Numbered from the stretch's first letter, positions 2 through 20,000 are shown. The stretch: DNA of 20,000 nt from an uncultured virus (IMG/VR IMGVR_UViG_3300001682_000284) (IMGVR_UViG_3300001682_000284); one strand, 5' to 3'. Notes: a model not told the origin generated them from the letters alone. Made by a program: numbers and translations.

Positions 2-151
2 ATGTTCCACGTAAAAAAGATTCTTTCTGGATTCATTAAGGATGGAACGAAGGTGGCTGGGGGAAATTGTGAAATTTGTGGTAGTACTGAATTAGTTTAC
101 CAATCTGGATGTTCAACTTGTAATAATTGCGGGAGTTCAAAATGTCAATGA
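2..151 (+). CDS. nrdJ: C-terminal end (partial) of class II, B12-dependent ribonucleotide reductase with Zn-ribbon
   Basis: Frame reads FHVKKILSGFIKDGTKVAGGNCEICGSTELVYQSGCSTCNNCGSSKCQ-TGA. The CxxCG...GCxxCxxCGxSKC tail is typical of NrdJ C-termini. Confidence 0.75.
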   Translation: MFHVKKILSGFIKDGTKVAGGNCEICGSTELVYQSGCSTCNNCGSSKCQ

Positions 152-783
152 AAGTTATTAAGAGAAAGTTTATGAGGGCTATTGAAGAATAGCCCCAAAA
201 GGTGGTGTCTGCATCTAATTCTGTTGGGGTTTAGATTAAGGATACTGAAAAGGTTAGAACCAATAACAATTAGATATGGTTATACGATGATATTTCCGAC
301 CAAAGTCTATATACACTTAAAACCTCAATATATTCCATAAATCAATTGTATGATCTAATAAAGCTACAATATGGTGGAATGTTAAAGTTTTAGCCAGTAA
401 TACATTTACATATAGCTAGCAATGGGGGATGTTGTTTTTCGGGACTACACATGTATGATATTATTAAACATAACAAGTACCCCATATACACTTATGTGGA
501 TGGATTTATAGCATCTGCTGCATCACTTCCATTTTTGGCTGGTGCTAAGAGATATATGAGTCCTAATGCGTTTATGATGATACATCAATTAAGTACTTGG
601 TTTATTGGAACATTCTAGAATCTAAAAGATTAGTACGAAAGCAGTGCTAAAGTAATGAATAAATTCAAATAGGTCTATAAATTCGAATTAAATATGGATG
701 CAGATAAGTTGTAGGAATTGCTAAAAAGGGATATATGGCTTGATAGGTAGTAGGCAAATGCCTTAGGATTCATTAGAGAATGA
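148..783 (+). CDS. clpP: ClpP-like serine protease (211 aa, 10 in-frame TAG)
   Basis: ATGA overlap with previous stop. Motifs HIASNGG, DGFIASAAS (Ser), FMMIHQ (His) and KRDIWLDR[E][E]ANALGF. Open only if TAG is sense. Confidence 0.85.
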
Positions 784-794
784 ACCAAAATAGC

Positions 795-830
795 GTGAAG
801 GTTTTTTAGTAAACCAGTTATAATAAAGAC
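795..830 (+). promoter_or_regulatory. Candidate promoter (TATAAT at 819-824) in the only sizeable intergenic gap of the left arm
   Basis: Perfect -10 hexamer but weak -35. Small inverted repeat GGTTT/AAACC (800-815). Followed by AGGAG and the ATG at 853. Confidence 0.35.
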
Positions 831-852
831 AAAGTTAAAAGGAGAAGTTGTA

Positions 853-1134
853 ATGAAAAAGTTTAAGTTTCCTGATTCAACAGTTTGGTTTCTTACTGAA
901 GATGAATACAAAGTCTTTGTTCCGTTCGATATCGTGAAAGATTTTGAGAAATTTGCAGATAAAAATAAGTTTGCCATTAAAGAGTGTGGAGTATATAATT
1001 ATACGAATAACAAAAAAAGAATTAACGACAGAAATAAAGGAATATTAGCAGATGGCAAAGATTACATTGTTAAAAGAGAATCTAAAGATCTCATTGTATC
1101 TTGGTTAAAGTCTGCTTATAAGGAGATTAATTAA
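853..1134 (+). CDS. Hypothetical protein, 93 aa, no TAG codons
   Basis: Listed in the ORF track. AGGAG RBS upstream. Its stop overlaps the next ATG (TAATG). Confidence 0.8.
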   Translation: MKKFKFPDSTVWFLTEDEYKVFVPFDIVKDFEKFADKNKFAIKECGVYNYTNNKKRINDRNKGILADGKDYIVKRESKDLIVSWLKSAYKEIN

Positions 1135-1946
1135 TGGCACAAAAACTATTTGCTTCGCCAGCTATACAATCCATATTGAGAAAGTACAAACCCTTAACAA
1201 AGGAATAGGAAATTAAATATACAGAATAGTATAAAAAGACAAAATCCGATAAATCTGCAACCGCATTGTTAAATGGTGTTTCTCATCTATTTGCCAATAA
1301 GATTAACAAGAACTAGGGAGCATTTTTAAAGTATGTTCCTGAAGCAACTTATGATGATATATTTAATGCCATGGTATTGCAATTTTTCAAGTTTATCCAT
1401 GAGTTCAATCCTAAGAAGTCTAAGCTTAATACTTGGACTGAATATACCATTATGCCAGTTTACAAGGATCCACTAAGGCACATGGGAAATAAGTTTTCTG
1501 CAAAGCATAAAACAGTAGATATAGATAAACCCTTTGCTGGGACAGAAGATACTATAGCAGATATACTTCCAGATGGTAGCGTAGACATATAGGCATAGTG
1601 GGAAAGAGGCATTAAAAACCGTAAACTACAGAACGCCATAAAAAAGTTAAACTCCCAAGATAGAGATATAATATTGAATCTGATGGGTTATGTTAAACCT
1701 CCAAAGAAAGAATGGTCTAAGGTTTTAAAGGATGGCACTGTTTCAATTAATGCCACCACCATTGCAAGAGGTCTTAACATATCCCCAGATAGAGTAAGAA
1801 CTCGTGTTGCCAATATCCTCAAAAAACTTAGAACGGAATTGGCGTAGAGTAAATTTGATAGATATTTCTAGTTGAACAGGTTAATAGAAAGGTATGATAA
1901 TCCTAAACGAAAATATTCTAAATATGATATATTAAACAAGGAGTAA
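1134..1946 (+). CDS. Phage sigma-70-family RNA polymerase sigma factor (divergent)
   Basis: Region 1.2-like YKPLTKE[E]EIKY, region 2-like FNPKKSKLNTW, IDKPFAGTEDTIADILPD, and region 4-like AIKKLNSQDRDII...IARGLNISPDRVR..VANILKKLR. Ends TAA 1944-1946. Confidence 0.75.
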
Positions 1947-1950
1947 TGTT

Positions 1951-2670
1951 TTGAACAAGAATTAGTTAACAATATATGAATTATACAGAAAGTTATATAG
2001 CAAAATGAAAAATGAAGAATTTGTTATAGATAAAACAGGTGCCAAGATGGTTTAGTTGATGCATTGCGCATTTGATTTAGATCCAACTTTGGGTGGTCAT
2101 TTAAATATAGCAGATATTGCAATAACAAATGAGGATTATGTTTAGAGAGAGATTAAGTGGTGCTTAAGCCAGAATTTAGATGTCAGTGAGTTAGTTCCTT
2201 ATGCTAAGATTTGGAACGAGTGCAAGGGAAATGATGATACGGTAAATTCAAATTATGGATGGTGCGTGTATTCCCCTGACAATCATAATCAATTTTAGAA
2301 GGCGTATCAAGCATTAGTAGAACAGAAGTAGACTAGACGTGGTATGTTAATTTATACCAGACCTACTATGCATGAAGATTATAAATAGAATGGAAAGAAT
2401 GACTTTCTATGTACTCAATTTAATCAGTTCTTGATAAGAAACAATAAATTGTAGATGTTCTATGTTATGCGTAGTAATGATGCAAGATATGGTCTATTTA
2501 TCAATTTCCCATGGGCTTGTTATGTGTATGGGGAAATGTTGCAGAAACTTCAATTGACTTATCCTGAATTGGAATCAGGAATGATTCATTGGTATAGCAC
2601 TAGTTTTCATTTGTATTAGAGGCATTTCAAGATGCTTAAGAAGATGTTTAAAGAATAGGAGAAGGCATGA
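1951..2670 (+). CDS. Thymidylate-synthase-fold enzyme of the T4 gp42 (dNMP hydroxymethylase)-like branch
   Basis: TTG start after AGGAG. Motifs FVIDKTGAKMV[E]L, VNSNYGW, TRRG, YTRP, DFLCT (catalytic Cys), MRSND..YG and SFHLY[E]RHF. Confidence 0.85.
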
Positions 2671-3176
2671 ATTTTAGTTTAACACGATAGACAAAGAGTC
2701 CCAGCAGAGGTCATAAAGAAGATGCGGGAATAGATATTTATGTACCAAAACTTACTGATGAATATTGTAAAGATTTCCATTCAATGAATCTAAATTCTTA
2801 GTACACATTAGACAGACCACACAATAGAATTATAATTAATCCTCATAGTAGAATAAAGCTTCCTACTGGGGTGTATTTCAATATACCAGAAAATAATATG
2901 CTTTTGGTGCTAGAAAAGACGAGTGTTCCAAATAAAACTGGAATTATTAGTGGTGCTAGGGTGATCGATGAAAATTATCAAGGTGAATTTATTGCCTCAT
3001 TAATTAATACGTCTGATAATGAAGCAATTTTGCAATAGGGACAAAAGTTTATACAATTAGTTTTAACTCCCATTCATTAGGATAGAGAATTACAACAAAT
3101 TAATTTTGAATAGCTATTTACGAATAAACAAACAACTCGTGGTAGTGGTGCATTTGGTTCAACAGGATTACATTAA
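2667..3176 (+). CDS. dut: Trimeric dUTPase-family pyrophosphatase
   Basis: Motif I DAGIDI, motif III VIDENYQGE, motif IV FIQLV, motif V RGSGAFGSTG. Motif II is atypical (EKTS). Confidence 0.9.
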
Positions 3177-3189
3177 GGAGATTATATAA

Positions 3190-3402
3190 ATGAAGATAAG
3201 ATTAACCCCAATTAAACCAATTTAGGAAGTAAAGGTCAAAAAAGATTAGAAGAAAGATAAAGCTTAGGTTCTTGAAAAATAGATAATATAGCCAGAAAGA
3301 GAAATTTAGACAATTGAAATTCCTAAAGAATAGAAAATATAGAAAAAAATTGAATAGCCAAAACCTAAAAAAAGGTCTTATAATAAGAAGACTACAGAAT
3401 AA
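3190..3402 (+). CDS. Small Lys/Glu-rich low-complexity protein (70 aa, 9 TAG)
   Basis: AGGAG RBS and ATG. Open to TAA with TAG as sense, filling the dut-polB gap. Confidence 0.65.
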
Positions 3403-3425
3403 TCAAACCCACCAAAGGAGATAAA

Positions 3426-6389
3426 GTGGAAGTTTCAAGGATAACAAGGTTAAGGAATAACGGACAAGATTACATTAGAGTCTTCGGTTACAATTAGAAC
3501 GGAGAACCAATTAAGCAACTAAAGGATTTCAAAAATTACATATTTATATAGAAAAAGTACCTAAAGGACATTAAGTACACCGTAAGGGTGTAGGATTAGC
3601 TATATAAATCATACGACCACAATATTACCTCAAAATACCTTAAGAAGGTCATATTAACAGGGTCTAAGACCTTCATGGTTTCAAAGAAATTGCAGGATAT
3701 AGCATATCAATCAGATATTACTCCTGAAACAAAATATATGTTGGATAATAACTTGTAGTTTTCAAGAAAAAGACATATAGCATTCTTTGACATTGAAACT
3801 TTCTATGATATAGAAAATGACCCAGAAGGAAATAGCGTAGATAACGCAGATTCCCCAATCACATCAATATGTTTCTATTCTAACTTTTTAAGTAGATACT
3901 TTGTATTAGCGTGGCATCCTGATCAGGATACTGGTGACGATCCATTTATAATCAAAGAATTAGGAAAGGATAAAGACCTTTATCTGTGTAAGAATGAAGC
4001 AGTTGTATTGGATACATTTTGTTACCTTATTAAGGAATTAAATGTTGATATTATAACTGGTTGGTATTCTCACGGATATGACGTACCTTACATCATGAAG
4101 AGATTAGTTAAGTTATTTGGCACTGCCGACAAACTTTCTCCCGTTGGAAATACTTGGTTAGGAAATAAGGGAGTATATGATGGTTACTTTAAGATAAAGA
4201 TTAGAGGATTAGACAGTATTGACCTCATGTAGGTCGTTCAATCGCTTAATTACAATCTCCAAAATAATAAACTCGATACTGCTGCAGCATAGATCTTAGG
4301 TGGTAAATACAGAAAGTTGAAAACTTCCAGTTGGAGAGACTGGCAGGACAACTTTAATGGGTTTATCAAGTATGCTATCCGAGATGTCGAGATTTTGTAT
4401 TTAATTGATAAAAAACTAAAGGTGTTTGAATATCTCATTCAGATGCAAATTCTTTCAGGTATTAATAGTTTAAATGATATTATGTCCGTAACTAGACTAA
4501 TTGATGCTATGTTTATTAAGAAGTTTTGGAATAAATTAGTGTTCCCAGACAACAAAGAGTCTAAGAGAGTTAGCTTTAAGGGTGGGTTAACAATAGATCC
4601 CACATCCCCTGGTGTTCATGAAGGTGTAGCGGTATTGGACTATGCGTCTCTTTATCCTACCACGATTATGGCTTATAACATTAGTCCTTAGACATTTCTG
4701 TTTTCTAAGGAACAATTAGGGTAGGAACAATTCCAAAAGGAACTTCAATTCTTGAAGGATAATGATATATCCTTTGTAGATACTGGAGAAAGCTAGGAAT
4801 TGTTTGGTGGAAGATACATATTCTTATCCCATAAGGAACACATTGGTTGTCTACCTTCATTATCGTATGAATTGTATACAATGAGAAAGCAATTCAAGAA
4901 GATAGCTAAAAACGGAGCTACAGCTGACGAGAGATTGGTTGCGGATAAAAAGCAATACGCTATTAAGATCATATTAAACTCTATCTATGGAGCTATGGGA
5001 TTCCCATTCTTTAGATTGTTCGTTCCAGAATGCGCAGATGCTGTAACATTCTTTGGGAGAAAGGCACTTAGATTTGCAATGGACAAGATGAGTCCTTGCG
5101 GATTAGTATTATATGGAGATACGGATTCGGTTACATAGGATTCAATGATTAGATATAGAATAAGAGATAATATGATAAAAAGTTGCGAGATAAAGGGTTT
5201 GTTTGATATGATGGCAAAAGATGTGTTTATTACTAAAGATAATAGATATATAGGTAGTTTACCAGATATTGAATTATAGTATTATGATGAAAAAACTGGA
5301 TAGGTTAGATGGGGCTAGGTTGATTTTATTTAGAAACATTTTGTAGATAAACCTACATTTTAGATAAGTTTTGAGAATGGCAGTTTTGTGGCGGTTACTG
5401 AAGATCATTCTTTGGTTGTTAAAAGAAATGAAAATGTTGTTTAGACTAAGGTTTATTAGTTGCAATAGAATGATCAATTTTATACTTTAAATGGATGGAC
5501 TAAAATGAATAAAATAACCCCCCAAGAACGATATGCTAGGTGGGTTTATGATATCCAAATGAAGGATAACCCTCATACATTTTTTGCTAATGGGGTGTTA
5601 GTCCATAACAGCGTATTCATTAAGTTGAAAGTGGACGAGAACACCCTCAAGGAACAGTTGGAATAGTTCAATAAGGAAGTATTACCAGACCAGTTGATTA
5701 AGAGATTTAATCCTTGCATTGATCTAAAGTATCTTCAATATGAATTGGAGCATGAAAAGAACCTTTCATATTTATACTTGGGAGATAGAAAGAAACGGTA
5801 TTATTCAATTCAACAAGACGGAAGCAAGTATATTCATGGGTTAAACATCATAAAGAAAGACACTCCCGCATATATAAAACAATTACTTGACCAACTTTGT
5901 GAACGAGCGGTAACAGGCAAGTTTTCGGTCAGCGATTTGGAATAGGTTTACAATAAAATTAAGACAGCGGAGTTGGACGAAATAGCCGTTCACAAATCCA
6001 TAACAAAGAGATTTGAAAAGTACAACAAAACTATTCCACAGCATGTATCGGGAGCATTATTTGCTAATGAGCATTTGGGTGTGAAGATTAAGCATAGCGA
6101 TGTCGTTTACTTGTTCTACATTAATAGCTTTTGCGAACCAGAAATTAAACCTGGTGATCGTAAGAATGTGGTATGCCTAAGAAAGGAAGATTTCCCATTA
6201 ATAGCTACTACTGATAAATTTTAGATAGATTATAATGAGTTGATGGAGAAACAATTTATTCAACCATTAAGAGAATTTAATAAGATACCTCAAGTACAGA
6301 AGGCAATAGATGATTGGGGTAAGTTATTTAATGACAATTACAGAATGAACAATAAAGGTTAGTTTGTATTTAAAAAGAGAAAGTTCTAA
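3426..6389 (+). CDS. polB: Family B DNA polymerase with 3'-5' exonuclease, interrupted by an intein (987 aa precursor)
   Basis: GTG start after AGGAG. ExoI FFDIET, ExoII GWYSHGYD, ExoIII YAIRD, DYASLYPTTIMAYNISP[E]T, KIILNSIYG, YGDTD|SVFI, KKRY. The five plus-strand ORF-track fragments (4008, 4317, 4800, 5694, 5973) share one frame. Confidence 0.95.
5127..5609 (+). mobile_element. Mini-intein (161 aa, no homing endonuclease) inserted at YGDTD|S of PolB
   Basis: Starts SVT[E]DS directly after YGDTD. Block B VTEDHSL, blocks F/G WVYDIQM...HTFFANGVLVHN, followed by Ser+1. Removal restores YGDTDSVFI. Confidence 0.93.
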
Positions 6390-6406
6390 ATTAGGAGAAT
6401 ACACGC

Positions 6407-6580
6407 TTGAAACTAGAAAAACATTAGGAAAAATAGCTTTCACTATGCTTTAGAATGGTGTAGGATTTGCAGTATAAACAGTCTAGAGAAGGTCTAAATT
6501 AGCAATAGAAAAAGGATTTACAACATTACAGTCAGAGAAAGAGAGATTTATTAATTAAAATGGACAAGGAATAGGAATGA
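6407..6580 (+). CDS. Small hypothetical protein (57 aa)
   Basis: AGGAG then TTG. Open with TAG as sense. Its TGA overlaps the helicase ATG (ATGA). Confidence 0.55.
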
Positions 6581-8163
6581 ACGAGTGGAGTAAGTATTTC
6601 CCCAAGAAATACAAACCTAGATAGTTGCAGATATAGGCTATATAGTTTGTAAGGGATACATTTTTTGTCAAGAATAAGAAGTTTGCTATATTGTAGTCTC
6701 CCGTAGGTTCGGGGAAATCCTTTATAGCATCAACTATAGCTAACTATGTAAACTCATTATATGAGTTCAATAGGAGCTATATATTAACAACCCAGATAAT
6801 TCTACAAAATCAATACAAGAAAGAGTTCGAATAGTTCGCCAATGTTAGCTCAAAGGCAAACTATTATTGTAGTATGTTCAAAGATTCAACATGTGGAGAC
6901 ATGAAATGGCTCCATTAGTATGGTGGAGTACCCACATGTAAGAATTGCGTCTTCGAACGAGAAAAACAGAATTTCCTCAACAATAAGGTGTCCATAACCA
7001 ATACCGCATTCTTTATGACTAATCTTCAATACAATGAAGACCTAATAAAGGACAGGGAATTTTTAGCTATTGATGAAGCCCACAATTTAGAATAGTAGAT
7101 TATCAAGTATAAATCTATATAGATAGATTGTGCAACTTTAGTTAAAGAATATGCGTTTAATGAATCTTATTGGGTTAAGGAAAGAGAAGATGTATTTAAG
7201 TGGTTAATATAGACATTATATTACTGGCTGCAAGAGAAAGCTACAACTTTGAAGTCTTTCATAGAGAACAATAATAAGGGGTTAAATCTCTCCCGTTCCA
7301 AGGTGATTGATGTTAGTAAGAAGTATGATTTCCTAGATAAACTTTTATGTCAATTAGATAGATCTATAGACGTATTTGATCCTAACAGATGGGTAGTTTA
7401 GAATGATACTGAAAATAAAGTTATAAAGATCACTCCTTTATTTGCTTATGATTTCGCTCAGAGCATGGTATTCAAAAAGGCAAATAAAGTGTTGTTAATG
7501 AGTGGTACCATATTGAATAAATTTGATTATTGCAAGAACTTAGGGATTCCAATCGACGATTGTTAGTTCCTGAGTTTGGATAGCCCATTTCCCGTTGAAA
7601 ATAGAAGAATATTCCTGTTGGATTCGGGATCTATGTCTAAAAAGAATATATAGAAAACTATGCCTAATCTAATTAGGGACATCAAGAAGATTTTAGAATT
7701 ACACAAACATTAGAAGGGCATAATACACGTGTCTTCACATCATATCGCCAATTTAATATTTGATGCTTTACAAAACTCTCGATTAGCCATATCCAGTGAG
7801 TTTAATAATAGAGACGAAATGTTGTAGTATCATTCAGATAACGATAATAGCGTATTAATTTCTCCATCGATGATGGAAGGGGTTGATCTAAAATAGGACT
7901 TAAGTAGATTCCAAATTATAGCTAAGGTTCCATTCCCCAATCTAGGAAACAAGTATATCTCGACTAAGAAGGATTTGGTAAATCATTGGTATTAGTATCA
8001 AACGGCTAAGGCGATAGTGCAAGCATATGGTAGGAGCATAAGATCCTAGTAGGACTACGCAGTAACATATATTTTGGATAGCGATTTTGGTTGGTATTAT
8101 AAGCAAAACAAATAGTTGTTCCCTAAATATTTTAAACAAGCAATTTCATACGGCAAGTTATAA
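6577..8163 (+). CDS. DinG/XPD (Rad3)-family SF2 helicase
   Basis: Q motif FP..YKPR[E]LQ, Walker A L[E]SPVGSGKS, DEAH, LMSGT, EGVDLK[E]DLSRFQIIAKVPFP and motif VI QAYGRSIRS[E][E]DY. Cys residues lie between motifs Ia and II. Confidence 0.92.
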
Positions 8164-8189
8164 TAAAAGAAATCGACAAGGAGTATATT

Positions 8190-8654
8190 ATGCCAAGAGG
8201 AAGACCAAAAAAATAGGTGCAGTAGGTTGTATTCGAAATGAAACAATCTCAAGAAATTTAGAATTTAATCAAAGAAATGATTGAAGAAAACAATATTGAT
8301 ACGGGAACAGCAAAACTTTGCGGATTAATGGTAACTCCATGCATTAACAAGACTACTGCTGGAAGATGTATTAAAGCGGGAAAGGAATTGAAGTTCTTTT
8401 CTGATTACGACTATATTATCTAGATATCACAAGAATATTGGGATAATTTAACAGACTAGGCTAGAAAGATCTTAGTTTTACACGAAGTAATGCATATCGA
8501 TATCCGCTATACTAAATAGGGTAAAGAGGTATTTGGAATGAGGCAACATGATGTGGAAGATTTTGCAGTGTTGCTTGAAAAGTATGGATTGCACTGGTTA
8601 AGAGAAGTTAAACTAGTTTAGGAGCATTTGAAGGACAAAGCATAGGACGAATAA
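8190..8654 (+). CDS. Putative phage metallopeptidase (HExxH)
   Basis: DYII[E]IS..YW..L, LHEVMH and HDVEDFAVLLEKYG pattern. AGGAG RBS. Confidence 0.8.
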
Positions 8655-8656
8655 TT

Positions 8657-8842
8657 ATGGAGCAGATGACGTATTATTGGGTTTGCCCAAGATGTAAGAA
8701 ACAATATGAAACACCGCAGCCAATACCAATAATTAGCAATCATTACATTTGTCCAGAATGTTATTATAAGTATGGCAATTCTTAGGTGAATTAGTGTGCT
8801 CCCGTTATAACTAATGAAAGGAAGGAAAGATTATGGGATTGA
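8657..8842 (+). CDS. Small Zn-ribbon protein (61 aa)
   Basis: CPRC...CPEC pairs. Abuts the previous stop and overlaps the next start. Confidence 0.65.
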
Positions 8843-9324
8843 AAGGTTTAGTTGACAAGGAAACAATAATAGAACGCAGTAATAGTTATGGAAATAACTT
8901 TCCATATCTTGTTGAGATTTGGAAAAACTTTTTGAAGCAGAGATATGATATGGATGTTCCTTTAACGCCAGGCGATGTGGCATTTATGTTTGCATTGCAT
9001 AAGATTAGTAGATTAGCTAATAATCCTGGCGATGAAGATACATTAAGAGACATGATCAATTATGCTTGGTTGGGAATAGATTATGATGATTATGTTGAAT
9101 AGCTTAAATCTGCCAGCAATAACAATGATATTGTTGATAATTTAATAGCTGAAATTAAGGAATTATAGTCTCCAAAAGAATAGGATTAGCAACTTTATTG
9201 TTTCTGGTATAAGAGAGATTGTATTTATGACGAGAATGCCGATTGGGGATCAGTAACAAAATGCCCAATGGGGTATTAGACATGGAACGATTGCGATTTT
9301 AATTCTCCTATTGAAATAAATTGA
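8833..9324 (+). CDS. DUF6378-like protein with acidic, Cys-containing C-terminal extension
   Basis: ERSNSYG..F..LVEIW..FL...LTPGDVAFMFALHKISR.....EDTLRDMINYA pattern. Reads through TAG 9100 to TGA 9322, next to the following ATG. Confidence 0.7.
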
Positions 9325-9325
9325 T

Positions 9326-10204
9326 ATGTTGTCTGATTACATAGAAAAGGTTAGTTATTCTAATATTAGCACTTTTTTGCAATGTCAAAGAAAGTGGAAG
9401 TTAACTTATATTGATAAATTAGATAAGAAATAGGATTCTGCAGATACCATTTATGGCACTGTAATCCATGAAGCTATTCAGAAGTTTTTGCACTATTACT
9501 ATTCAAACACTTTAACGACTTTACAAGCCAATAAATAGAAGTTATTAGAGTAGTATTCGATCTTTATAATGAAGGGTTTAGAATAGGGATTTATCAAGAA
9601 GTTGAATTTATCATATTAGATTACTGAACAGTATTTGGGTTATGGAATGGAACTTATTAAATAGTTTATACCGAATGTTAATAAATGGTTTCCAAAATCA
9701 GGAATGGAACTGTAGGGGACAGAAATTTAGTTGAATGTCAATGAGCCTAATTGGAAAGTTAGATTTAACGGCTATATTGACATATTATTGCATGACAAGA
9801 AGAATGATAGATATAAGATTATAGATTTGAAAACTTCTAGAACCAGTTGGAACGACAACCAAAAAAATGATTAGGTAAAAAGATTGCAATTGTTGCTTTA
9901 TAAGATCTTTTTATCGCAATTAAAATCTATCCCCCTTTAGAATATAGATATAGAGTTCTTGATTCTAAAGAAGATAGTATTTTAGGGTCAATACAAGGTT
10001 AGTAGAATTCAAAAATATTAGCCACCTCACGGTAAGGCGACAATAAACAAAGCTGTTAAGTTATTCAATGAAACTTTGAAAGAAATGGAAATTTTATGCG
10101 AAAGTAAATTGTAGGGAGAAATGAATCCCACTAATTATTGCAATTGGTGTTCATTCTATAAGGAGAAACAGTTATGTAGTAGAAAAAGAACCATCAAAAA
10201 ATAA
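9326..10204 (+). CDS. PD-(D/E)XK nuclease, RecB/AddB/Cas4-like, with probable Fe-S Cys set
   Basis: SYSNISTFLQCQRKW, GTVIHEAI, FNGYIDIL, IIDLKTS, QLLLY and C-terminal CNWC...C. Confidence 0.88.
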
Positions 10205-10575
10205 AGTATTTCAATATACTAATAACAGGCGATAACAACTATAATAATTTATCTAAATTCAACATCCTAATGACATAGATTAGTCAAGAAATAGAACAAG
10301 TTAAGTGTATTGGAACTTTTGGTGGAAAGTATGGAGCTTAGGTTCTAGCACAATTATTTGCCTAGCAATAGGGCATCAAGTTTAAAGAGTTTAGTACGTC
10401 AATGTTTAAGAACGTAAAAAGACCCGAAGGTCAATTATACCATATTTTATTATCTGTTGCCACAAAGTGGTCCGACTTAGTTATTATATTCTCCAATGTT
10501 TACAACAATAAAATTAAATAGATAATTGACATATGTAAAAGGAATGATAAGGAATACATAATAATTAAGGAGTAA
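10174..10575 (+). CDS. SLOG/YspA (DUF2493)-like nucleotide-binding protein
   Basis: AGGAG then ATG-TAG-TAG. ILITGDNNY and GGKYGA[E]VLAQLFA[E]Q[E]GI resemble the SLOG GGAxGAD motif. Confidence 0.6.
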
Positions 10576-10577
10576 TG

Positions 10578-10925
10578 ATGGAAGATTTGAACGTAAAGCA
10601 AAGTTTTCCATGCCCAGACTGCGGTTAGTAGGCAATGGAGTTAATAGAAGATCAAACTTTAATGAGATGTTCCAAATGCAAAGCAGAAATGCAATTAGAT
10701 ACATATGCTATATCGTTGTAGTTAGCTTAGAAAGAGTTAATTATCGAAGCATTAAAGATGTTTCTAGAAGCGGGAACAGGAAGATGTGTAAAGTTTAATG
10801 GCAAGCATTATATTGTTGGATTCGATGATGACTACGATATAGTAACTGAAAAGTATGAATTAGGTTAGAATTAGTAGGAAGGTATGTATGTGAGATTATC
10901 CTTTCAAAAGGAGGAAGGGAAATGA
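10578..10925 (+). CDS. Zn-ribbon-containing hypothetical protein
   Basis: CPDCG...CSKC. AGGAG RBS. Alternative start at 10575. ATGA overlap with the next gene. Confidence 0.7.
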
Positions 10926-11167
10926 ACAATTACAAGTATTATCAAGCAACCGTAAGGTATTCTGTACCTGAAACTACTGCAACGGGGAAAACCCAATTAA
11001 AAACAAAACGAGATTAGTATTTAGTTAATGCTGAATCTATAACAAGTGCTTAGCAAACATTGACGGCTACACTTGGATCATTATACGATAATTTCGAAAT
11101 TATAGCCATTAAATAGAGTATTATTCGTGGCGTAATTACTGAAGTTCAAGACGTATTAGCGGAATAA
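10922..11167 (+). CDS. DUF4494-like small protein
   Basis: YYQATVRY....GK..LKTKRD[E]YLVNAESITSA[E] matches the recalled family pattern YLVDA.SFTEAE. Confidence 0.7.
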
Positions 11168-11182
11168 GGGAGATAACGATTT

Positions 11183-12691
11183 ATGGCAGTTAAGAAGTAC
11201 AAGGTTGGGGAATTAAGAAATGGAACGGAAGTCTTGCCTCCTTAGAAGAGAAAGACCATTCTATTCATTAGCGATCTCCATCTAAGACATAGTGGATTAG
11301 GAAGTCAAAAGAAATAGATTATCTATGAAACCTGTCATCGATACAACTATATAGATATAGGGTTTATCGAAGGTATTAATCCACAAGCACAGTATCCAAT
11401 GTAGGATATAAGTCAAAAGGTTCAAGGGGAAACTGGAGTAGCTGATGCTAGCGTTAGAATATTACCTTATGACATATATGGTCAAGATGTAGTTAAGAAA
11501 CAGAAGGATTTATTGAATTATATCGATCAGCTTAAACCTGACGCATTATATCATTTTACTGATCCTCACTCTTGGTATTGGTTGTATTAGATTTAGAATT
11601 TGATTAGATCTAAGATTCCAATTATTTATTACAATATTTGGGACAATTTGCCATACCCTAAATATAATGAAAGATTCTACTCTTGCTCGGATCTGATAAT
11701 GAACATATCTAAACAGACTCAGAATATTGTAAACAATGTTTGCGTTAATTACAAGAGAGAACCTTGGCAAACTAAATATGTACCACATGGTATTAATATG
11801 GAGACGTTTAGACCTTTAGGGAAGAACAATGCCACATATAAAGCTGTGTCAGATATAGTAAAAAGAGATGATTATGATTTCATCTTCTTGTTCGTTAATA
11901 AGAACATTATACGTAAACAAGCATGTTTAATCATGTAGGCGTTTAAGTGGTTCGTTAACAACTATTTAACTCCCGAACAGAAGAAGAGAACTTGTTTAAT
12001 CATGAAAACTTAGGTAATCTATGGACCAGGCATGCCTCTTAATATTTATCAAGAAGACATCATTCACGATCCAACCGTGGACATTAAGTTTATCAGTCAA
12101 GGAATGGACCAACATGAATTAGTAGCACTTTATAATTGTGCGGACGCATTGATTTCTTATTCCACAGCAGAAGGCTTTGGATTATCTAGTGCTTAGGCTA
12201 TGGCGTGTGGCAAACCATTCATCGCTCCTGTTATTGGTGGACTTCAAGATCAAATGGGATTCGAAGATGAAGATGGCAATTTATATGTAAATAACACTGA
12301 GCTCCCCTCTAATTGTTATAAAGCGTTAACAAAACATAAACCGTGGGCATTTCCAATATTCTTTAGCGGACTGGGTGCAACTGGTTCCATGATAACTCCT
12401 TATATTTATGAAATGTATCATAGTTTAGAAGATTTGATATAGGCGATGAAGATGGTTTATTAGATGCCAAAATAGTAGAGAGAAAAAGTTGGATTGGAAG
12501 CAAGAGAATGGATGCAAACCTAGGAAGTTAAAATGACTTCATCTTGGATGGCACAATCTATGGTAGAAAATATTGATTAGATGTTTGCTAAGTGGAAACC
12601 TAAAAAAGAATACAAAATGTTTAAAGGCATTCCAATAATTAAACATACAAATGCGGGTTCGTTTGACCCAATTAAGAAGATTTGGGAGTAA
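11183..12691 (+). CDS. GT-B fold glycosyltransferase (GT4-like) 1
   Basis: ILFISD...HSGLG, HFTDP, IWDNLPYP, YVPHGI, NKNIIRKQ, LYNCAD and EGFGLSSA[E]AMACGKP (E-x7-E), followed by GGLQDQM. Confidence 0.92.
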
Positions 12692-12693
12692 TT

Positions 12694-13950
12694 ATGTAGA
12701 AAAAGAATATAGCTTTAGCAGCACCTTTCACCTCTTACAGTGGATACGGTTAGTATGGTAGATCAATAGCTTTAATGGTTGTTGATCTTTACAAGGATAA
12801 TACAGATATAACTGTATCTCTGTTTGATTTAACTGGTGGAACTTTAGGATAGAGTGAAAAATTTGATCTAAAATCTTCTAAATTTAATTAGATATAGCCT
12901 TACATTAAGGCTAATGAATAGATATAGAAATAGTTTTTTGATATCTTTATGACAGTATCTATTCCTATGGCATTTGTCCAAAGGGGGTTGATCAATATAG
13001 GAATTACTGCCTTAGCAGAAGTAGATAAGGTTCATCCTCAATTGATATAGCATTGTAATCGTATGGACGAAGTGTATGTGATGTCCGATTTCAATATTGA
13101 CACATTAAAACGCTCAATATTTAAACTTCAAGATGAAAGATAGATTAAATTGAATGTTCCTGTGGATAAGATAGGAGTTCCATTTATTTAGATTACTAGC
13201 AAGGGTAAAACTGATATTACCGATTTCATCACTTCCATCCCTCAGAAGTTCTTATTTCTTTCAGTAGGAGAATGGTTACCAGGATCCATTGGAAACGATA
13301 GAAAGGATATTGGTGCATTAATTTCAACATTCTTGAGAGGATTTGCTAACAATAAAGACATAGGATTAGTCTTAAAGACCAATCAAGGAAGATCATCCCT
13401 TCTATCTTAGTATGGAATTAGAGAAAGAATGAACGAAATTGCAAAGGGATTAGGTATTGAAATTACATTTCCTAATGTCTTTTTCATTAGCGGAAATCTA
13501 ACCTAGTCTCAAATGTTAGAAATTTATAATCATGATAAGATCAAAGCCTATGTAACCTTTACACATGGAGAATCATTAGGTATTCCAATTATAGAGTTTA
13601 TTGGTAACACATAGAAACCTGTGATATTGCCATATCATTCAGGAATGTTAGAATACATTAAACCTGAATATAGTTAGATATTAATTCACAAATAGGTACA
13701 AGTACATCCAGAACTATTCCAATCATTTATGAGAGAGTTTGTAATACCCGAATCGAAATGGTACACTGTCGATTATCAATATTCCCTGTTTAAGATGGGC
13801 TAGGTAGTCAACAACTATAATGTTGTAGCTGGAAGAGCTAAGCATCAAAAAGAACATATTAAATAGAACTATTCAAAAGAAAAGATTCAATAGAAATTGG
13901 CTCTTATGCTGGATAAGCATCTAAAATAGGAAGTATCGCTTGATTTATAA
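12694..13950 (+). CDS. GT-B fold glycosyltransferase (GT4-like) 2
   Basis: APFTSYSGYG[E]YGR, NIGITA, CNRMDEV, FLFLSVGEW, DRKDIG, LVLKT and THGESLGIPIIEF (E-x7-E). Confidence 0.9.
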
Positions 13951-14684
13951 TGGCAGTAAAGAAAAAGATCACTAAGTCTAAACCTAAGAAACCGCCTAGA
14001 AGATATGACCATAAAAGGAATTTATTCTAGAACAAAAGGTTCAAGTTTTAGAAGAAAATCAATAAGAATTAGTTACAACCAGGAATGATTGTAACTTTTG
14101 CTTATAAGGGGATGAATGTTCATGACCCTCAACCTTTAGTTTTGGTGTTAAACAAATATTGGTTGGGTAAGCTACACGGAATAAACCTGAATTATTGCAA
14201 ACCTAGTTAGGTCAATGCTATTGCTAAGATTGTATCGGGAAAAATAGATGCTAAACAAGAAAAATTAGGTCAGAAGTACAATCTTACGAATCCTTTCGGG
14301 TTCTACCACACTTCGCTCAAGAGAGCAATTTTAGGATTGGGAAAGAGCATATACCGAACTTACTTTTTTTCAGGAGTAATGCAACCTAAATTGTTAGACT
14401 TTAAATTTGAAAAGTCTAAAGGGAAATAGGTTTTAGTGTTCACAGATAAGTAGGGTAAAACTCAAGTACAAGTAACTAAGATCAAATCTAGAGAAGCAAA
14501 GAGAGTTACAAAAAAGAAACCACAGGATATCTAGCAGAAAGTTAGTTTAACTAGAAAACAAAAGAATGTAAAGGTTATTCCAAATAATAAGCTTACTTCA
14601 TCTAGAGGCACACCTAGAACTTTACAAGTAAAAAATGTATCGACAATATCAGAACCTCAAGTAATTAAGGTTAAGGAAAAATGA
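13950..14684 (+). CDS. T4 gp2-like DNA end protector / basic DNA-binding virion protein
   Basis: PGMIVTFAY...D..PLVLVL....LHGINLNY and YRTY resemble gp2-family motifs. Lys/Arg-rich termini. Confidence 0.6.
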
Positions 14685-14685
14685 T

Positions 14686-14991
14686 ATGAATAAGATGGGG
14701 CTATTTTCAACTATTCCTAAATTAATAAAGGCTATCCAAGTTGAATAGGTTTAGGAAATATATGATCCTAAGAGCGGTTAGAAGTTTCTAGCTCAAATAG
14801 GGGATTGGAAGGTGATAGATGAAAGGGGAAATGTTTTCGTTATCAACTATTTCTAGTTTGTTGAGAGATATTCCCCTGCAGATTCCACATCGTTTTAGAT
14901 GTTTACAAAGAAAGATTAGATATATGCTTCCAGAGGTAGAATTTTTAACTAGTTGAGAAGCAATATTAAACATATTATAGAATAGAAATAA
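14686..14991 (+). CDS. Hypothetical phage protein (PGDYG/GDW-like motif)
   Basis: KAIQV...AQIGDWKVIDERGNVFVI..F[E]FVERY. Tightly packed between neighbours. Confidence 0.6.
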
Positions 14992-15015
14992 TTGGAGATC
15001 AATAAAAATTAAAGA

Positions 15016-15777
15016 ATGGCAGAGACAAGAGATCTTATAGTTCGTTCCAGTAATAAAACCACACATACAAAATCCTTTATAAGGATAGGGGATGAGTCCC
15101 CATTATCCGTTTCAGAAACAGGTTCTTCAATTTAGTTTCTTGGTGATTTATCTGATATCGCCAAGACATTTGATACCCAAGGAAAGGCTTCTGCGTTTAG
15201 AATAAGACATGATACAGTTAATGGTTACTTAATCTTTGAAGGTAGAAGTGGCAGTAATGGACCATATCAGTTAATGAGATTAAATGACGATACTAACACA
15301 GTTACATTTGGTGGCACAGTAGCCTTCGAAGATATTAGTTTTGATTAGATTACTGGCAGTCATATTTATGTTGGCACTTCATCTAGATTATTAGGCACTA
15401 CGTCAATATCATTCTTATCTATGACAAGTTCTTTAGGAACAGCATCAATTTGGTACGATGGAACTTAGTTGCACATCGACGGATTTAGTTCTAAGGGAAC
15501 TAGTTGGAAAACTCAATATAAAATTACTGCTTCTTACGATTCGAATAGCTATTACAATGTCTACACTTCCAGTGCAACTCAAGTAATTTAGGATTATAAC
15601 TATTTATCGGTATTTCTCAATGGATCCCTTCTTTATGCCAGCGGTTCAATTGCTGATTGGGACTATCAAACGGGAAGTAGTTTAGTTACACCCTCTATCA
15701 AATTCAGATATAATCTACCATACACCTAGTAGGACGAATGGTGGTTAGGTTACATATACAGCGGAGGAGAATCTTAA
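15016..15777 (+). CDS. Probable virion structural protein (Ser/Thr/Gly-rich)
   Basis: Open frame with TAG as sense. Beta-rich composition, C-terminal LSVFLNG..L......DY pattern, TAATG overlap with the next gene. Confidence 0.65.
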
Positions 15778-15962
15778 TGGTATATAACATACCTAATTTT
15801 GCGCTAATCAAATAGTACGACTACTATTATGTGGTGGAGTCTTGTTCATTATCGACTGAGAATGATTAGATTTAGATAACGACATTCAATACTATATAGT
15901 AGTTGCATTAGTACGCAACAATTAATAACATAGAATTGCCTATCTAGGAAATTACAGAATAA
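15777..15962 (+). CDS. Small acidic hypothetical protein (61 aa, 7 TAG)
   Basis: TAATG overlaps at both ends. Confidence 0.6.
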
Positions 15963-17422
15963 TGGCTACAGCAACAGTAACTAGGACGATATCAGATACA
16001 GAACATCGAATCACTGTAACTTCTACAGGTGGTGTAGGAAACGTATCCACAATAGCATAGGTGTATGCTGCAGTGATCGCAGCATAGTCTACTGCAATGT
16101 CTTATGATAGTGGTACCAATACATATACACTACGTAGATTAACTAGTACATTTTCTTCATTTTATATAGGTGCTAATTCTACAGTCTAGATTCCTTAGGG
16201 TACTACATTTATTAATTAGGGAACTACTACTGCACGTGCGTCAAATAAGGTATTTTAGATATCCGAAGATGGAAAGCTAATATTAAAGCCTGGTAGTAGA
16301 ATTAAATTCAGTTAGGCTGGTGGATATCTGTACTTTTATGGTATAGTTAGTGCAGTTGGCACAGCAGCTAACCCTATAATTTGGTAGTCTTATAGATCTT
16401 GCTATTGCTATAGTAGAACTGTAGGTGGCCAAACTAGATTTTAGTGGGTAACATTCAAAAATAATACATATTCAACTGGATATTATTTTTATTTTTCGCA
16501 ATACAATCAATATCGTGCAATACCAATGATATTTAAGAATGTAAAATTTATACGCGATAATTCATCAAAATATGGTCACCCATTCTATTTTTCACCTGGT
16601 GGTATGTATTCAAATGTATAGGTAGATGGTTTTTAGTGTGATTATACTAATGTTATAGTGATTTATGGTTGTTCTGTTAAATTAAAGAATGGAATTATTA
16701 AAAATTTAGCAGGTAATAATATCACCATAAAAGGTGGTGGAAATGTAATATCACCGGCATATTAGACTAGTAAGGACGACACTACATTTCCAACTGGAAG
16801 ATTTCAATCTATGGTTGTACTATAGAATATATAGTTTGATAAACTTGCAAGTACTAGTGCCTACGCAATATACGCAGCGTATAATTCATTAGTATATGTA
16901 AAGAATTGTACGTTTACAGTTACTTCTGGACCAGTGTATCGGGGTGTGTATACAGGGTATGGAAGTACTTTAATTTAGAATAATAATGATTATACCGATA
17001 TTATGTCTAATACTTCAAGAAAGTTGATATCTACAACACCAGGGATATTACTACACGGGCATTAGCTAGATTTAACAGTATTAGATTAGAACAATCAACC
17101 AGTAAATGAAGCAACTGTAACAGTCATTCAAAAATCTAATCCATCTAAATAGCGTTGGTCTGGTCTAACTAACTAGAATGGTAAACTACTAACCGTATAT
17201 AACGACAATCCTGTGTACATATAGAAGGAATAGACCAGTTTAAATGCCTTTCAATACTGGTCAAATCCTGGACACACATTAATGGTTAATAAATCTGGGT
17301 ATAAGCCTAGTATTCAATACTTGTCATTTACTCAAGACAAGACCGTGGTAGTAAAACTGTAGATTCAGCCAGACACAATTGATATTCCTGGATTATAGAT
17401 AGGTTAGGGGATAGTATTTTAA
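15962..17422 (+). CDS. Probable tail-spike/fibre-like protein with beta-helix region and C-terminal beta-sandwich (486 aa, about 24 TAG)
   Basis: No TAA/TGA for 486 codons. AVGTAANPII, FKNVKF and VKNCTF are beta-helix-like. LTVLD[E]NNQPVNEATVTV...TN[E]NG...VNKSGY resembles a carboxypeptidase-regulatory-like domain. Confidence 0.7.
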
Positions 17423-17424
17423 TT

Positions 17425-17895
17425 ATGGCACTTAATATTGGCAGAGGAATAAAACTACAAGGCGGATTGTCCATAGGTAAACAGCAAATTCTGTCGACGA
17501 AGTATTATACCATACAAAATATAGTTTGGCGTGTAATTAATAATAGTTAGTCAATGGAAGGATTTATTTCCCCATATGATACATGTTAGTTTTTTTATTC
17601 TAAGGAAGCAGATAAGTGGAAGTGGATTATATACAGAGATGATGATTTTGCCTACGTATATTAGAGAAAGGATGATACTTTTGAAGGATTTCGTAATGAT
17701 AAAGATAAAGTTCTAATATATACATACAATCCTAATAATGTATCTTATAAAGGATGGCCTAGATGCCTAATAGATTTGAAATGCGACACATTTTATGACG
17801 GAACAAGAGAAATCACAGTCTACCCTAGGGGATAGTGGTACAAACCTAATGCATATTATTAGAATATACTTGCTTAGGCTTTACAATCAATATGA
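17425..17895 (+). CDS. Hypothetical (likely virion-associated) protein
   Basis: Open with TAG as sense. N-terminal MALNIGRGIKLQGGLSIG. Ends in TGA. Confidence 0.65.
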
Positions 17896-17904
17896 CAAAT
17901 TTTA

Positions 17905-18154
17905 GAGTTAAAAGGGAGATGATATAGTCCGATCTACATAGAAATATGTAGTTAACATCAATGCAATACACTGCGTAGGAGGATTAATAACGTGGTCCCA
18001 TATAACTGGATGAATTCGGTGAACATCTTAACGAGAAAGACGAAGACAATACCGAGCCAAGCCAAGAGCCAACTCTTGGAAGGTGTAGAGACTACTGGAG
18101 GAAGAATGGTCTTCCTTAATAACCAGCTTGAGCGTCCAGCTACCCTTTTAACTC
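17905..18154 (+). ncRNA. Circularly permuted group I intron ribozyme (IA-like, opened in L8) flanking a 21-nt internal exon
   Basis: P8 3' strand 17905-17918, J8/7-P7' ATGATA-TAGTCC 17919-17930, P9 GAAA hairpin 17934-17951 and omega-G near 17963 all precede P1 (17981-17998), P3, P4, P5, P6, P7 (GAGACTA 18088-18094), P7.1, P3' and the P8 5' strand (18140-18154). Confidence 0.85.
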
Positions 18155-18175
18155 ATTTTAAGGAAACAACAATTA

Positions 18176-20000
18176 ATGGATAAAGTAATTTTAAACGGAA
18201 ACAAGGCAAGATTCTATAATGAAGGTAATACCTAGTCAGGCTCTATACAATATACGGATAGTAAACTATCTATAAAGGGAAATAGTGCAGGTAGTGGTGT
18301 ATTAATTACTGATGGTAAATTACATTTAAAAAGTGGAAATTCTACTAGTAGTATTACATATAATGCTTCTACAGAAGGAGTTCAGTTTCCAGATGGGTTG
18401 GTTATTATTGGGTAGAATTATGCTGGTAATTATCATGACGTTATTAAGATCAAACATAAAAGTACACCTAAATATTCAGTTTCTATATTAATAGCCGATG
18501 AACCATTCGATGTTGGATTTGCTGCGCCCATTGGATCTTTAGGGTTATATACTGAAGAATCGGGGAACTTATACGGTAAATATGGAAATGCCGATGAAGA
18601 GTGGGGTATGTATGTTAGAACTAATAACTCCGGAGTTGTTTAGCAATTAACATCATCTACTATTCAATTAAAGAATGCAACGAATTAGTCTAAAAGTGGA
18701 AGCATTAGTATTAATGGCTCGTCAAAGTTAGAAGTATCTACAGGAATTTATAGCTTGGGAGATATATATGCGCATGGGACTTTGCAGTCATATAGTGGAC
18801 TATACGTCTATAGCGACGATGGCATGAACAATATATTTAGCGTCACTAATGGTGGAGTATGGTCATATTATAATATCGGCGCATCAGATTCGTAGTATCC
18901 TACATATATTGTTATAGGAAACTCAGAGGTTGATTCGTATATTACCTTAAATTCTGATACGTATTACGTTGGTAATAATTATTTTAACAAATCATTACAA
19001 AGCAACACATTCACTACTGGTTTTGGTGGTTCAGGTTTTGCAATATCTCAATCTAATGGTAGATATATTGCTCAATTCGACGATCTTTGGGTTCGTGGTT
19101 CTATGAATGTTTATGAAATGGTTATTAATCAAATAAGAGCGACAAATGGTTCTCTCTGGATTTCAGATGCCAGTAAAGCAATAAGTGCGTCTTATGATTC
19201 AATAAATAAACGAATAGTATTAAGATTTTAGACTGGTTCTTTAATTCCCTTTATTGCTGGAGACATTCTTCGTTCTAAACGCTGGGGAGTTTCAGGTTCT
19301 ACAACACAATCCGTTTGGGATATTACTACTACAGTTTCTGCTGTCAATTATGCTACTGGATATGTGACACTGTCCGCACCATTAGCGAATAATTCATATA
19401 CTGTAACTGGTTCTGCAAATGGAACTTGGGCACAATTTGTTTCTAAGATTTCTAATTCTGGCTCTTAGTGGGTAAGAGTTGGAAACACCACTAATCCAGA
19501 TAGAAAGGGTTCAATATATATAACTTCTAATGATATTGGTGGACCATTTTTAGATGTTTATGATGGAGTGTCTAGTTCAGTGCAGGCTACTTCAGGTGCA
19601 AGCCAAAGTGTCACTTCTTCTAAGGTCAAAGTTAGAATTGGTAAGCTTAAAGGTATAGTAGATCCCACATTCAATCCTTCGGCATTAAGCGGTTACGGTT
19701 TGTATTCAGATAATGTATTTCTCAAAGGCACTATTAGTGCAAAAGCTGGTGATATAGCAGGTTGGAATCTTAACGATACATCCATTTATAAAAAGGTTTC
19801 TGGTAATACATTTTCAATAACTAATTCTGTAGATGGTGCTGGTTTATTCGTGTATAGTGGAACAAATCCCGTATGGAACAATAGCAGTACAAAAGTATAT
19901 ATTGGTTCAGATGGTAAGTTTTCACTTGGAAATAAATTAAAATTTAGTGGGGGTCAATTATCAATTTCAGGCATCGAAGCTGATGTTGGTGAACTTGGTG
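18176..20000 (+). CDS. Large tail fibre / host-specificity-type structural protein (partial, runs off the window)
   Basis: AAGGA RBS. Gly/Ser/Thr-rich. FTTGFGGSGF..AQFDDLWVRGSMNVYEMVINQIRATNGSLWISD, VRVGNTTNPDRKGSIY, GPFLDVYDGV and GYGLYSDNVFLKG patterns recalled from phage tail proteins. Confidence 0.8.

Follow-up and report, generated by a model that had tools for sequence, protein, structure and literature searches.

Phages in which the stop codon TAG is read as an amino acid, including crAss-like, Lak and Agate phages, are assigned to NCBI translation table 15 (code 15), in which TAG encodes Gln (10.1101/2021.08.26.457843; PMC8346664; PMC9523058). In Borges et al. (10.1101/2021.08.26.457843), a suppressor tRNA with the anticodon CUA is reported for 35–40% of such phages, a phage-borne decoder is proposed to follow early genes of standard code, and the glutaminyl- and tryptophanyl-tRNA synthetases (GlnRS and TrpRS) are argued to be the sole susceptible synthetases. 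The Lak phage paper mentions TAG codons at times aligned with Glu, yet read as Gln (PMC8346664), and TAG is also taken as Gln in a 2026 jumbo-phage survey. Here, we describe a stretch of 20,000 nucleotides from an uncultured virus (IMG/VR IMGVR_UViG_3300001682_000284), referred to as the window, in which TAG is an abundant sense codon, together with related contigs that form one clade with it. In this clade, TAG is very probably a sense codon for Glu beside GAA and GAG, with TAA and TGA as stops and with a phage-supplied, Glu-charged CUA decoder acting in a host of standard code. The assignment to Glu is shown by sequence comparison; the steps concerning the host, the switch and the decoder we infer.

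Translated with table 11, the window (20 kb, 33% G+C) contains a longest complete open reading frame (ORF) of 124 residues. With TAG read through, 21 ORFs are obtained, all on the plus strand; together they take up 93.5% of the window, and neighbouring ORFs are spaced by −31 to +280 bases. In-frame TAG amounts to 209 of 6215 codons (3.4%) and is present in 20 of the 21 genes, and the stop of each of the 20 complete genes is TAA (14) or TGA (6), neither of which is found in frame across the 21 ORFs. The two other frames of the same genes are rich in these triplets (218 and 376 TAA, 102 and 202 TGA), so that their absence in frame is not a matter of chance. TAG accounts for 209 of the 472 TAG, GAA and GAG codons (44%), a share that ranges from 32 to 86% in each of the 20 TAG-bearing genes and is higher in the relatives, and Pfam domains of the encoded proteins extend across TAG sites. 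It is thereby confirmed that TAG is used as a sense codon in almost every gene of the window, in replication and structural genes alike. A preliminary description of the window, made from the sequence alone, had stated that nearly every gene holds in-frame TAG, that genes end only in TAA or TGA and that read-through gives tight gene packing, all of which agrees with these counts. The eight sites it had singled out (748, 1206, 2617, 4689, 6694, 8047, 11051 and 12194) are all TAG as located, the four conserved Gln sites it had named (one in ClpP, two in the helicase and one in dUTPase) are encoded by CAA or CAG, and the second Glu of the E-x7-E motif in the neighbouring glycosyltransferase-like gene is GAG.

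Two metagenome contigs of the JGI, L081 (4 kb) and L082 (18.8 kb of a 46-kb record), are close relatives of the window. Of the 114 window TAG codons that fall within the 3370 codons aligned to L082, 101 are TAG there too, and the window TAGs are therefore not an assembly artefact, since L082 is an independent contig. A second, more heavily recoded lineage is represented by C98 (also L083), an 8.6-kb contig that is the sole clade member found by a scan of species genomes. It is binned in G001, a metagenome-assembled genome (MAG) of an uncultured Spirochaetaceae, and is syntenic with the window at ~50% protein identity. A 20-kb contig of the same MAG, C11 (L232), encodes the N-terminal part of the polymerase with 21 TAG and a 5'-3' exonuclease, together with RecA, DnaB, full-length GroEL and ribonucleotide reductase at 409–14296; all of these genes are TAG-dense, at up to 7% of codons. 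C11 and C98 are hereafter taken together as the G001 phage. The helicase is present in one of 258 genomes of the order of G001, and two tail proteins used as queries revealed no further clade contig in this MAG.

The identity of the encoded residue was approached through profiles of homologous proteins, for which the state of the deposited sequences had to be considered. Relatives of the window helicase in the protein database are full-length, with identities of 92% and below, and the closest ones show Gln at the window TAG positions. As deposited, the helicases of the recoded clade have Glu down to 1.3–1.7% and Gln up to 8–9% of residues, compared with 6.8% and 2.6%, respectively, in a standard-code relative. 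For P0017, P0125 and P0303, the stored sequence is identical at every residue to a translation of L083 and L082 DNA with TAG as Gln. It thus appears that public protein sets mistranslate genes of the clade with TAG as Gln, giving 'DQxH' boxes. Rows with Gln at or above Glu, or with Gln at least 0.8 times Glu, were removed before profile building, which left 181 of 223 database matches for the helicase; keeping the Gln-inflated rows would bias the tally towards Gln, not Glu. Each query, with X at TAG, was then aligned with the kept homologues, a hidden Markov model was built without the query, and log emission probabilities were summed for each codon, using the columns with an occupancy of 60% or more, in a manner similar to Codetta.

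In five window families (44 TAG columns), Glu was the best residue, with Asp 19.3 and Gln 41.2 nats behind, and in seven families (65 of the 209 TAG) it was again best, ahead of Lys (−31.3 nats), Asp (−33.1) and Gln (−53.6). Glu exceeded Gln in all seven families, was top overall in five of them and came out best in 2000 of 2000 bootstraps. For the G001 phage (214 of 443 TAG), Glu was ahead of Lys by 59.5 and of Gln by 162.5 nats and exceeded Gln in 14 of 14 genes. The sense-codon controls of the window were mostly called correctly (GAA and GAG as Glu; CAA as Gln; AAA and AAG as Lys; GAT and GAC as Asp). A tally of this kind had been named as a check in the preliminary description, with Glu expected far above Gln, which is what is seen in both lineages. 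An assignment as in crAss-like and Lak phages, where TAG would be Gln and its alignment with Glu would reflect tolerated Glu-to-Gln replacements at surface sites, is extremely improbable with Gln this far behind in both sets of columns, even though all recoded TAG phages found in the published record are assigned Gln and TAG is one transition apart from CAG.

The same distinction emerges from the contrast between codon classes. The mean profile at window TAG columns (Glu,.160; Asp,.104; Lys,.091; Gln,.063) is to be compared with that at GAA/GAG columns (GAR; Glu,.197) and at CAA/CAG columns (CAR; Gln,.183; Glu,.105), and in the first five families Gln is.057 at TAG and GAR columns alike. In Mann–Whitney tests on ln(Glu/Gln), TAG differs from CAR in the window (p = 3e-5) and in the G001 set (p = 8e-5), where TAG versus GAR gives p = 0.14. 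TAG columns thus seem indistinguishable, or nearly so, from those of GAA/GAG and distinct from those of CAA/CAG. Among individual sites, TAG 4689 (polymerase residue 422) faces Glu in 112 and Asp in 24 of 150 homologue rows, and TAG 6694 (helicase residue 40) faces Glu in 158 of 181 rows. The glycosyltransferase family PF00534 scores 42.6 bits on the GT1 gene with TAG as Glu, compared with 37.7 bits with TAG as Gln.

Direct comparison with the nearest standard-code relatives (P0013, P0147 and P0300) gives a consistent picture. These proteins have Glu at 21 and Gln at none of the 44 window TAG sites compared, Glu at 30 of 59 GAA/GAG sites, and Gln at 20 and Glu at 7 of 42 CAA/CAG sites; for the PD-(D/E)XK nuclease, the nearest such relative has Glu at 5 of 13 TAG sites and Gln at none. 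Were TAG read as Gln, the lack of Gln at all 44 sites would have to be accounted for. When codons of the window are set against those of the G001 phage, window TAG meets TAG 32, GAR 22 and CAR 8 times (n = 112), window GAR meets TAG 50, GAR 35 and CAR 14 times (n = 169), and window CAR meets TAG 13, GAR 6 and CAR 39 times (n = 120). The TAG and GAR rows of this table look alike, and under a Gln assignment Glu sites would become Gln more often than they stay Glu.

Several of the sites in question are functional. The Glu of the DEAH box is encoded by TAG in the L083 DNA; of 120 database helicases, 7 show 'DQxH', each of them richer in Gln than in Glu, and the other 113 have Glu. In the RecA of C11, TAG lies opposite the Glu within FIDAEHAL when aligned with E. 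coli RecA chains, a residue which we take to be the catalytic Glu. Aligned with chain 9rwr_A, the 30 TAG of the C11 GroEL face Glu (12), Asp (6), Ala (3), Gln (2), Lys (2), Pro (2), Thr (1), Asn (1) and a gap (1), the Glu sites including those of IAEDVEGE, ATEVEMKEKK and AAVEEG. The ExoI Glu of the family B polymerase (PolB) appears as Gln in 2 of 122 homologues, both being Gln-inflated relatives. With a Gln assignment, several relatives would have to carry Gln in place of the Glu of the DEAH box, of RecA and of ExoI, and helicases would have the skewed Glu and Gln contents described above. The reading of TAG as Glu put forward in the preliminary description is therefore supported by the tally in two lineages, the codon cross-tables, the nearest relatives and the catalytic Glu sites.

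Other observations weigh against a Glu assignment. The tally leans to Glu at weak columns: window CAG (18 columns) is called Glu by 3.2 nats and CAA in the G001 set by 14.8 nats, and control miscalls in the window also occur at ATG, TGC and CCG. In view of this lean, reliance was placed on the contrasts between codon classes, where window TAG columns are themselves slightly below GAR columns (p = 0.037). With one family counted per region, reading TAG as Glu raises the Pfam score mildly, by about 19 bits in the window and about 28 in the G001 phage, and some families lean to Gln (dUTPase, −0.6; PolB exonuclease, −1.0; DEAD, −2.4; GroEL, −0.4; ClpP of C11, −1.5; DnaB intein, −4.0). The helicase would have a net charge of +3.2 with TAG as Gln and −0.6 with TAG as Glu, the mean of its homologues being +3.1 (sd, 1.6); net charge was tried as a means of telling the two residues apart and was dropped because it does not discriminate. 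Some TAG codons face conserved residues other than Glu, such as the Gln of 'EGMQ' and the Asp of 'GFGD' in GroEL. Between the window and L082, TAG swaps with GAA/GAG nine times and with CAA/CAG five times, a comparison that by itself is compatible with Gln. Finally, no tRNA(CUA) or CUA anticodon arm was detected in the window, L081, L082, C11 and C98 (~65 kb of clade DNA), and no tRNA(CUA) was present among the 61 tRNA matches of MAG G001.

The five swaps with CAR and the slight lean of some Pfam families and of the helicase charge speak for a Gln assignment. The swaps with both codon pairs, the position of window TAG columns slightly under GAR columns, and the few TAG opposite conserved Gln in the GroEL and RecA alignments would also fit a mixed decoding, in which a non-discriminating glutamyl-tRNA synthetase (GluRS) loads a suppressor of the tRNA-Gln type with Glu and partial amidation then gives a mixture of Glu and Gln, or in which two suppressors act together. 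Such a mixture is quite improbable, as Gln is not enriched at TAG columns, CAR codons of the G001 phage are no commoner opposite window TAG than opposite window GAR, and a Gln fraction would harm the catalytic Glu sites.

The negative result for the clade DNA was obtained with ARAGORN (also run in its intron and relaxed modes), with Rfam and with a scan for anticodon arms bearing CUA. No suppressor tRNA was present among 231 tRNAs in 237 loci examined. Likewise, Pfam scans of the window and C11 contain no gene for a GluRS or a release factor. The preliminary description had predicted a CUA-anticodon tRNA elsewhere and had suggested looking for phage GluRS and release factor genes; neither was found in the DNA covered. 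Two candidates were rejected. One, on the minus strand of C156 of G001 (262–332), is a tRNA with an apparent Glu-type body and CUA in a 6-base loop; in the Infernal alignment its loop has 7 bases (UUUCUAU), the anticodon is UCU and the anticodon stem contains a bulged A. With this anticodon, and on a contig of standard code, it is not the decoder. The other, a 'tRNA-Pyl(cta)' at 11203–11280 on the minus strand of the window, obtained with relaxed ARAGORN, is the antisense of an in-frame TAG and has a poor cloverleaf and no counterpart in C98. As to its surroundings, C156 (in L204) is an AT-rich contig with a tRNA array and genes for a T4-type RNA ligase, an SprT-like protein and DUF2828. The small G001 contigs C167 (L205; 6.5 kb, 17 Infernal tRNA matches), C441 (L206) and C91 (L207) carry dense tRNA arrays as well; they look phage-like and are of standard code.

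A cue to the host comes from four consecutive genes of C11 (775 codons, one gene being sigma-like), which contain 2 TAG and 50 GAR, compared with 281 TAG and 208 GAR in the rest of the contig (Fisher, 2.6e-15). The two TAGs precede the annotated TAA by 9 and 6 codons, one of them adjoining the ATG of the next gene, and may be the true stops of these genes. A homologue of the 93-residue gene of the window, the only one there without TAG, sits inside this block; candidates for early genes of standard code would be this single gene in the window and the block in C11. The scarcity of TAG in this block suggests that the host uses the standard code and that the code is switched later. The genes of MAG G001 itself look standard, with a fragment of the gene for release factor 1 (RF1) and an rpoB without in-frame stops, binning being weak evidence of host. 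That the host itself reads TAG as Glu, with the phage following without a decoder of its own, would agree with the presence of TAG in replication and structural genes and with the lack of a suppressor tRNA in the clade DNA, and is nevertheless very improbable: the C11 block avoids TAG, two of its genes carry TAG just before the annotated stop, the MAG of this relative has the RF1 fragment and the uninterrupted rpoB, and the genome screens consulted report no TAG sense code in bacteria.

The preferred reading, TAG as Glu by means of a phage decoder, can be outlined as follows. The host would read TAG as a stop, and a few early genes would either do without TAG or terminate at it. A tRNA with the anticodon CUA, charged with Glu by a glutamyl-tRNA synthetase, would then be supplied by the phage; the simplest origin of this tRNA would be a tRNA-Glu(CUC) with one anticodon change. 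Such a decoder would make the remaining genome translatable, and its gene is assumed to lie outside the clade DNA read so far. Should complete genomes prove to lack a tRNA(CUA), either a novel type of decoder or one taken from some other element would be implied.

The clade is widely distributed. The stretch 3426–13400 of the window was found in 20 public runs of 16 studies, from anaerobic digesters, activated sludge, wastewater, groundwater and landfill; six of these runs are RNA libraries, which may contain DNA. Contigs from four runs align to the window, mostly with 95–99% likeness. In IMG/VR, no recoded-clade member was found with a single-protein query or among the best 80 matches of 162 and of 255 from two alignments (A1 and A2), and the clade-specific pattern KGIIHVSSH had 0 matches. 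A pattern with TAG within the DEAH box picked out one IMG/VR record (L200/G002), a phage of 64% GC and a chance match, whose lack of tRNA is uninformative for the clade. Among deposited phages, the best tblastn matches of the helicase (H1, H2 and H6–H8) are unannotated 'uncultured phage' records of 630–735 kb, at ~30–32% identity. It is somewhat likely that we are dealing with a cosmopolitan clade of wastewater, digesters and groundwater with a near-whole-genome TAG-to-Glu code outside the NCBI list, which replaces most GAA and GAG in some relatives and is enforced by a phage-brought, Glu-accepting CUA decoder in a standard-code host.

The genes of the window are listed in the table, with products named by a Pfam scan in which the sigma-like and DUF4494-like matches lie below curated cut-offs. 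The window contains no Rfam family above noise and no tRNA.

Table. Genes of the window with their positions, in-frame TAG codons and supporting matches.
Feature	Coordinates	Strand	TAG codons	Support
ClpP-like protease gene	127..783	+	10	PF00574, E 7e-21
93-aa gene, sole gene without TAG	853..1134	+	none (6 GAA/GAG)	codon counts
Sigma-like gene	1134..1946	+	7	weak Sigma70_r4/GerE match below cut-off
Thymidylate-synthase-fold gene	1951..2670	+	9, including 2617	PF00303, E 1.7e-10
dUTPase gene	2667..3176	+	5	PF00692
Family B DNA polymerase gene with intein	3426..6389	+	23	PF00136, PF03104, PF14890
DinG/Rad3-like helicase gene	6577..8163	+	20	PF13307, PF04851
Phage metallopeptidase gene	8190..8654	+	8	PF18894
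DUF6378 gene	8833..9324	+	5	PF19905
PD-(D/E)XK nuclease gene	9326..10204	+	13	PF12705
Three small genes (133, 116 and 81 aa; Zn-ribbon, DUF4494-like)	10174..11167	+	17 together	
GT1 glycosyltransferase gene	11183..12691	+	14, including 12194 in E-x7-E	PF00534
422-aa gene, E-x7-E with GAA and GAG	12682..13950	+	20	no Pfam match
Three genes of unknown function (244, 101 and 253 aa)	13950..15777	+	21	
486-aa Ser/Thr/Gly-rich gene	15962..17422	+	24 of 28 TAG+GAA+GAG codons	
156-aa gene and 608-aa gene open at the 3' end (tail-fibre-like composition)	17425..19999	+	13	

The polymerase intein of the window is located after the DTDS motif. In L082 (4393–8418), the polymerase gene is split into two ORFs (591 and 406 residues), between which lies an ORF of 330 residues with a ROS/MucR-type zinc finger, probably a homing endonuclease within the intein region. 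In C11, RecA, DnaB and ribonucleotide reductase each carry an intein, and the reductase, which has a LAGLIDADG domain too, is split by an ORF of 402 residues. Four extra genes of L082 (2625–3950, 8796–9995, 11639–12787 and 13695–14798) have no counterpart in the window; three are GIY-YIG SegE-like (two from weak Pfam matches and the third from a similar N-terminus) and one belongs to DUF7487, and each is TAG-rich (14–30). They look like mobile endonuclease genes that took on the phage code. In the region 15450–18370 of the window, contigs from other runs skip or replace ~2.1–2.9 kb, and read depth vanishes in two runs and almost vanishes in another. The Ser/Thr-rich genes form a cassette that varies between strains, in keeping with a role in host recognition; the stretch of the 156-aa and 608-aa genes (17425–19999) is lacking or exchanged in other strains. 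With respect to codon usage, AAG (283) and AAA (281) are nearly equal in the window despite its 33% G+C, and GAG (51 of 263) and CAG (38 of 183) make up about a fifth of their respective pairs; in the G001 phage, AAA is dominant over AAG (292 versus 63, in aligned columns).

Phage stop-codon recoding has so far been treated as two cases, TAG as Gln and TGA as Trp, and gene callers hard-wire TAG as Gln. The present clade would represent a third assignment, TAG as Glu. No paper claiming this assignment in a phage was found in a literature search, and the phrase 'reassignment to glutamate' had one match, concerning suspected contamination in archaeal assemblies; the literature searched thus agrees with the preliminary description, which knew of no such assignment in a phage. 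On the comparisons made in two lineages, the reading of TAG as Glu is well supported. The window is that of a stop-codon-recoded phage with an assignment not reported in that literature, which matters in practice to gene callers and to protein databases. Translation of clade proteins with TAG as Gln would show catalytic Glu as Gln, as in the 'DQxH' helicases; functional predictions, structural models and peptide searches built on such sequences would be led astray. A Glu-charged CUA tRNA of natural origin would widen the set of synthetases that phages can hijack, and may offer a new part for genetic code expansion.

In comparison with known systems, the clade shares with code 15 phages the in-frame TAG in many genes and the retention of TAA and TGA as stops, and the few standard-code-compatible genes of its relative fit an early-to-late switch as in those phages. 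It differs from them in that window TAG aligns with Glu and not Gln, that the recoding of the window spans both replication and structural genes, that neither a suppressor tRNA nor a gene for release factor 2 (RF2) was seen in the clade DNA read, and that its habitat is wastewater, digesters and groundwater, not the gut. UAG is read as Glu also in NCBI table 30 (peritrich ciliates, where both TAA and TAG encode Glu) and in table 31 (Blastocrithidia). Those codes reassign TAA along with TAG, whereas TAA is the main stop of the window and never occurs in frame, and they belong to cellular eukaryotes, not to a phage that would override the code of its host. For E. coli, amber suppressor tRNAs that insert Glu have been made in the laboratory and demonstrate that a tRNA with the anticodon CUA can be made to carry Glu, although an unmodified tRNA-Glu(CUA) tends to receive Gln in this organism. 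These suppressors are engineered, whereas the decoder of the present clade would be a natural one.

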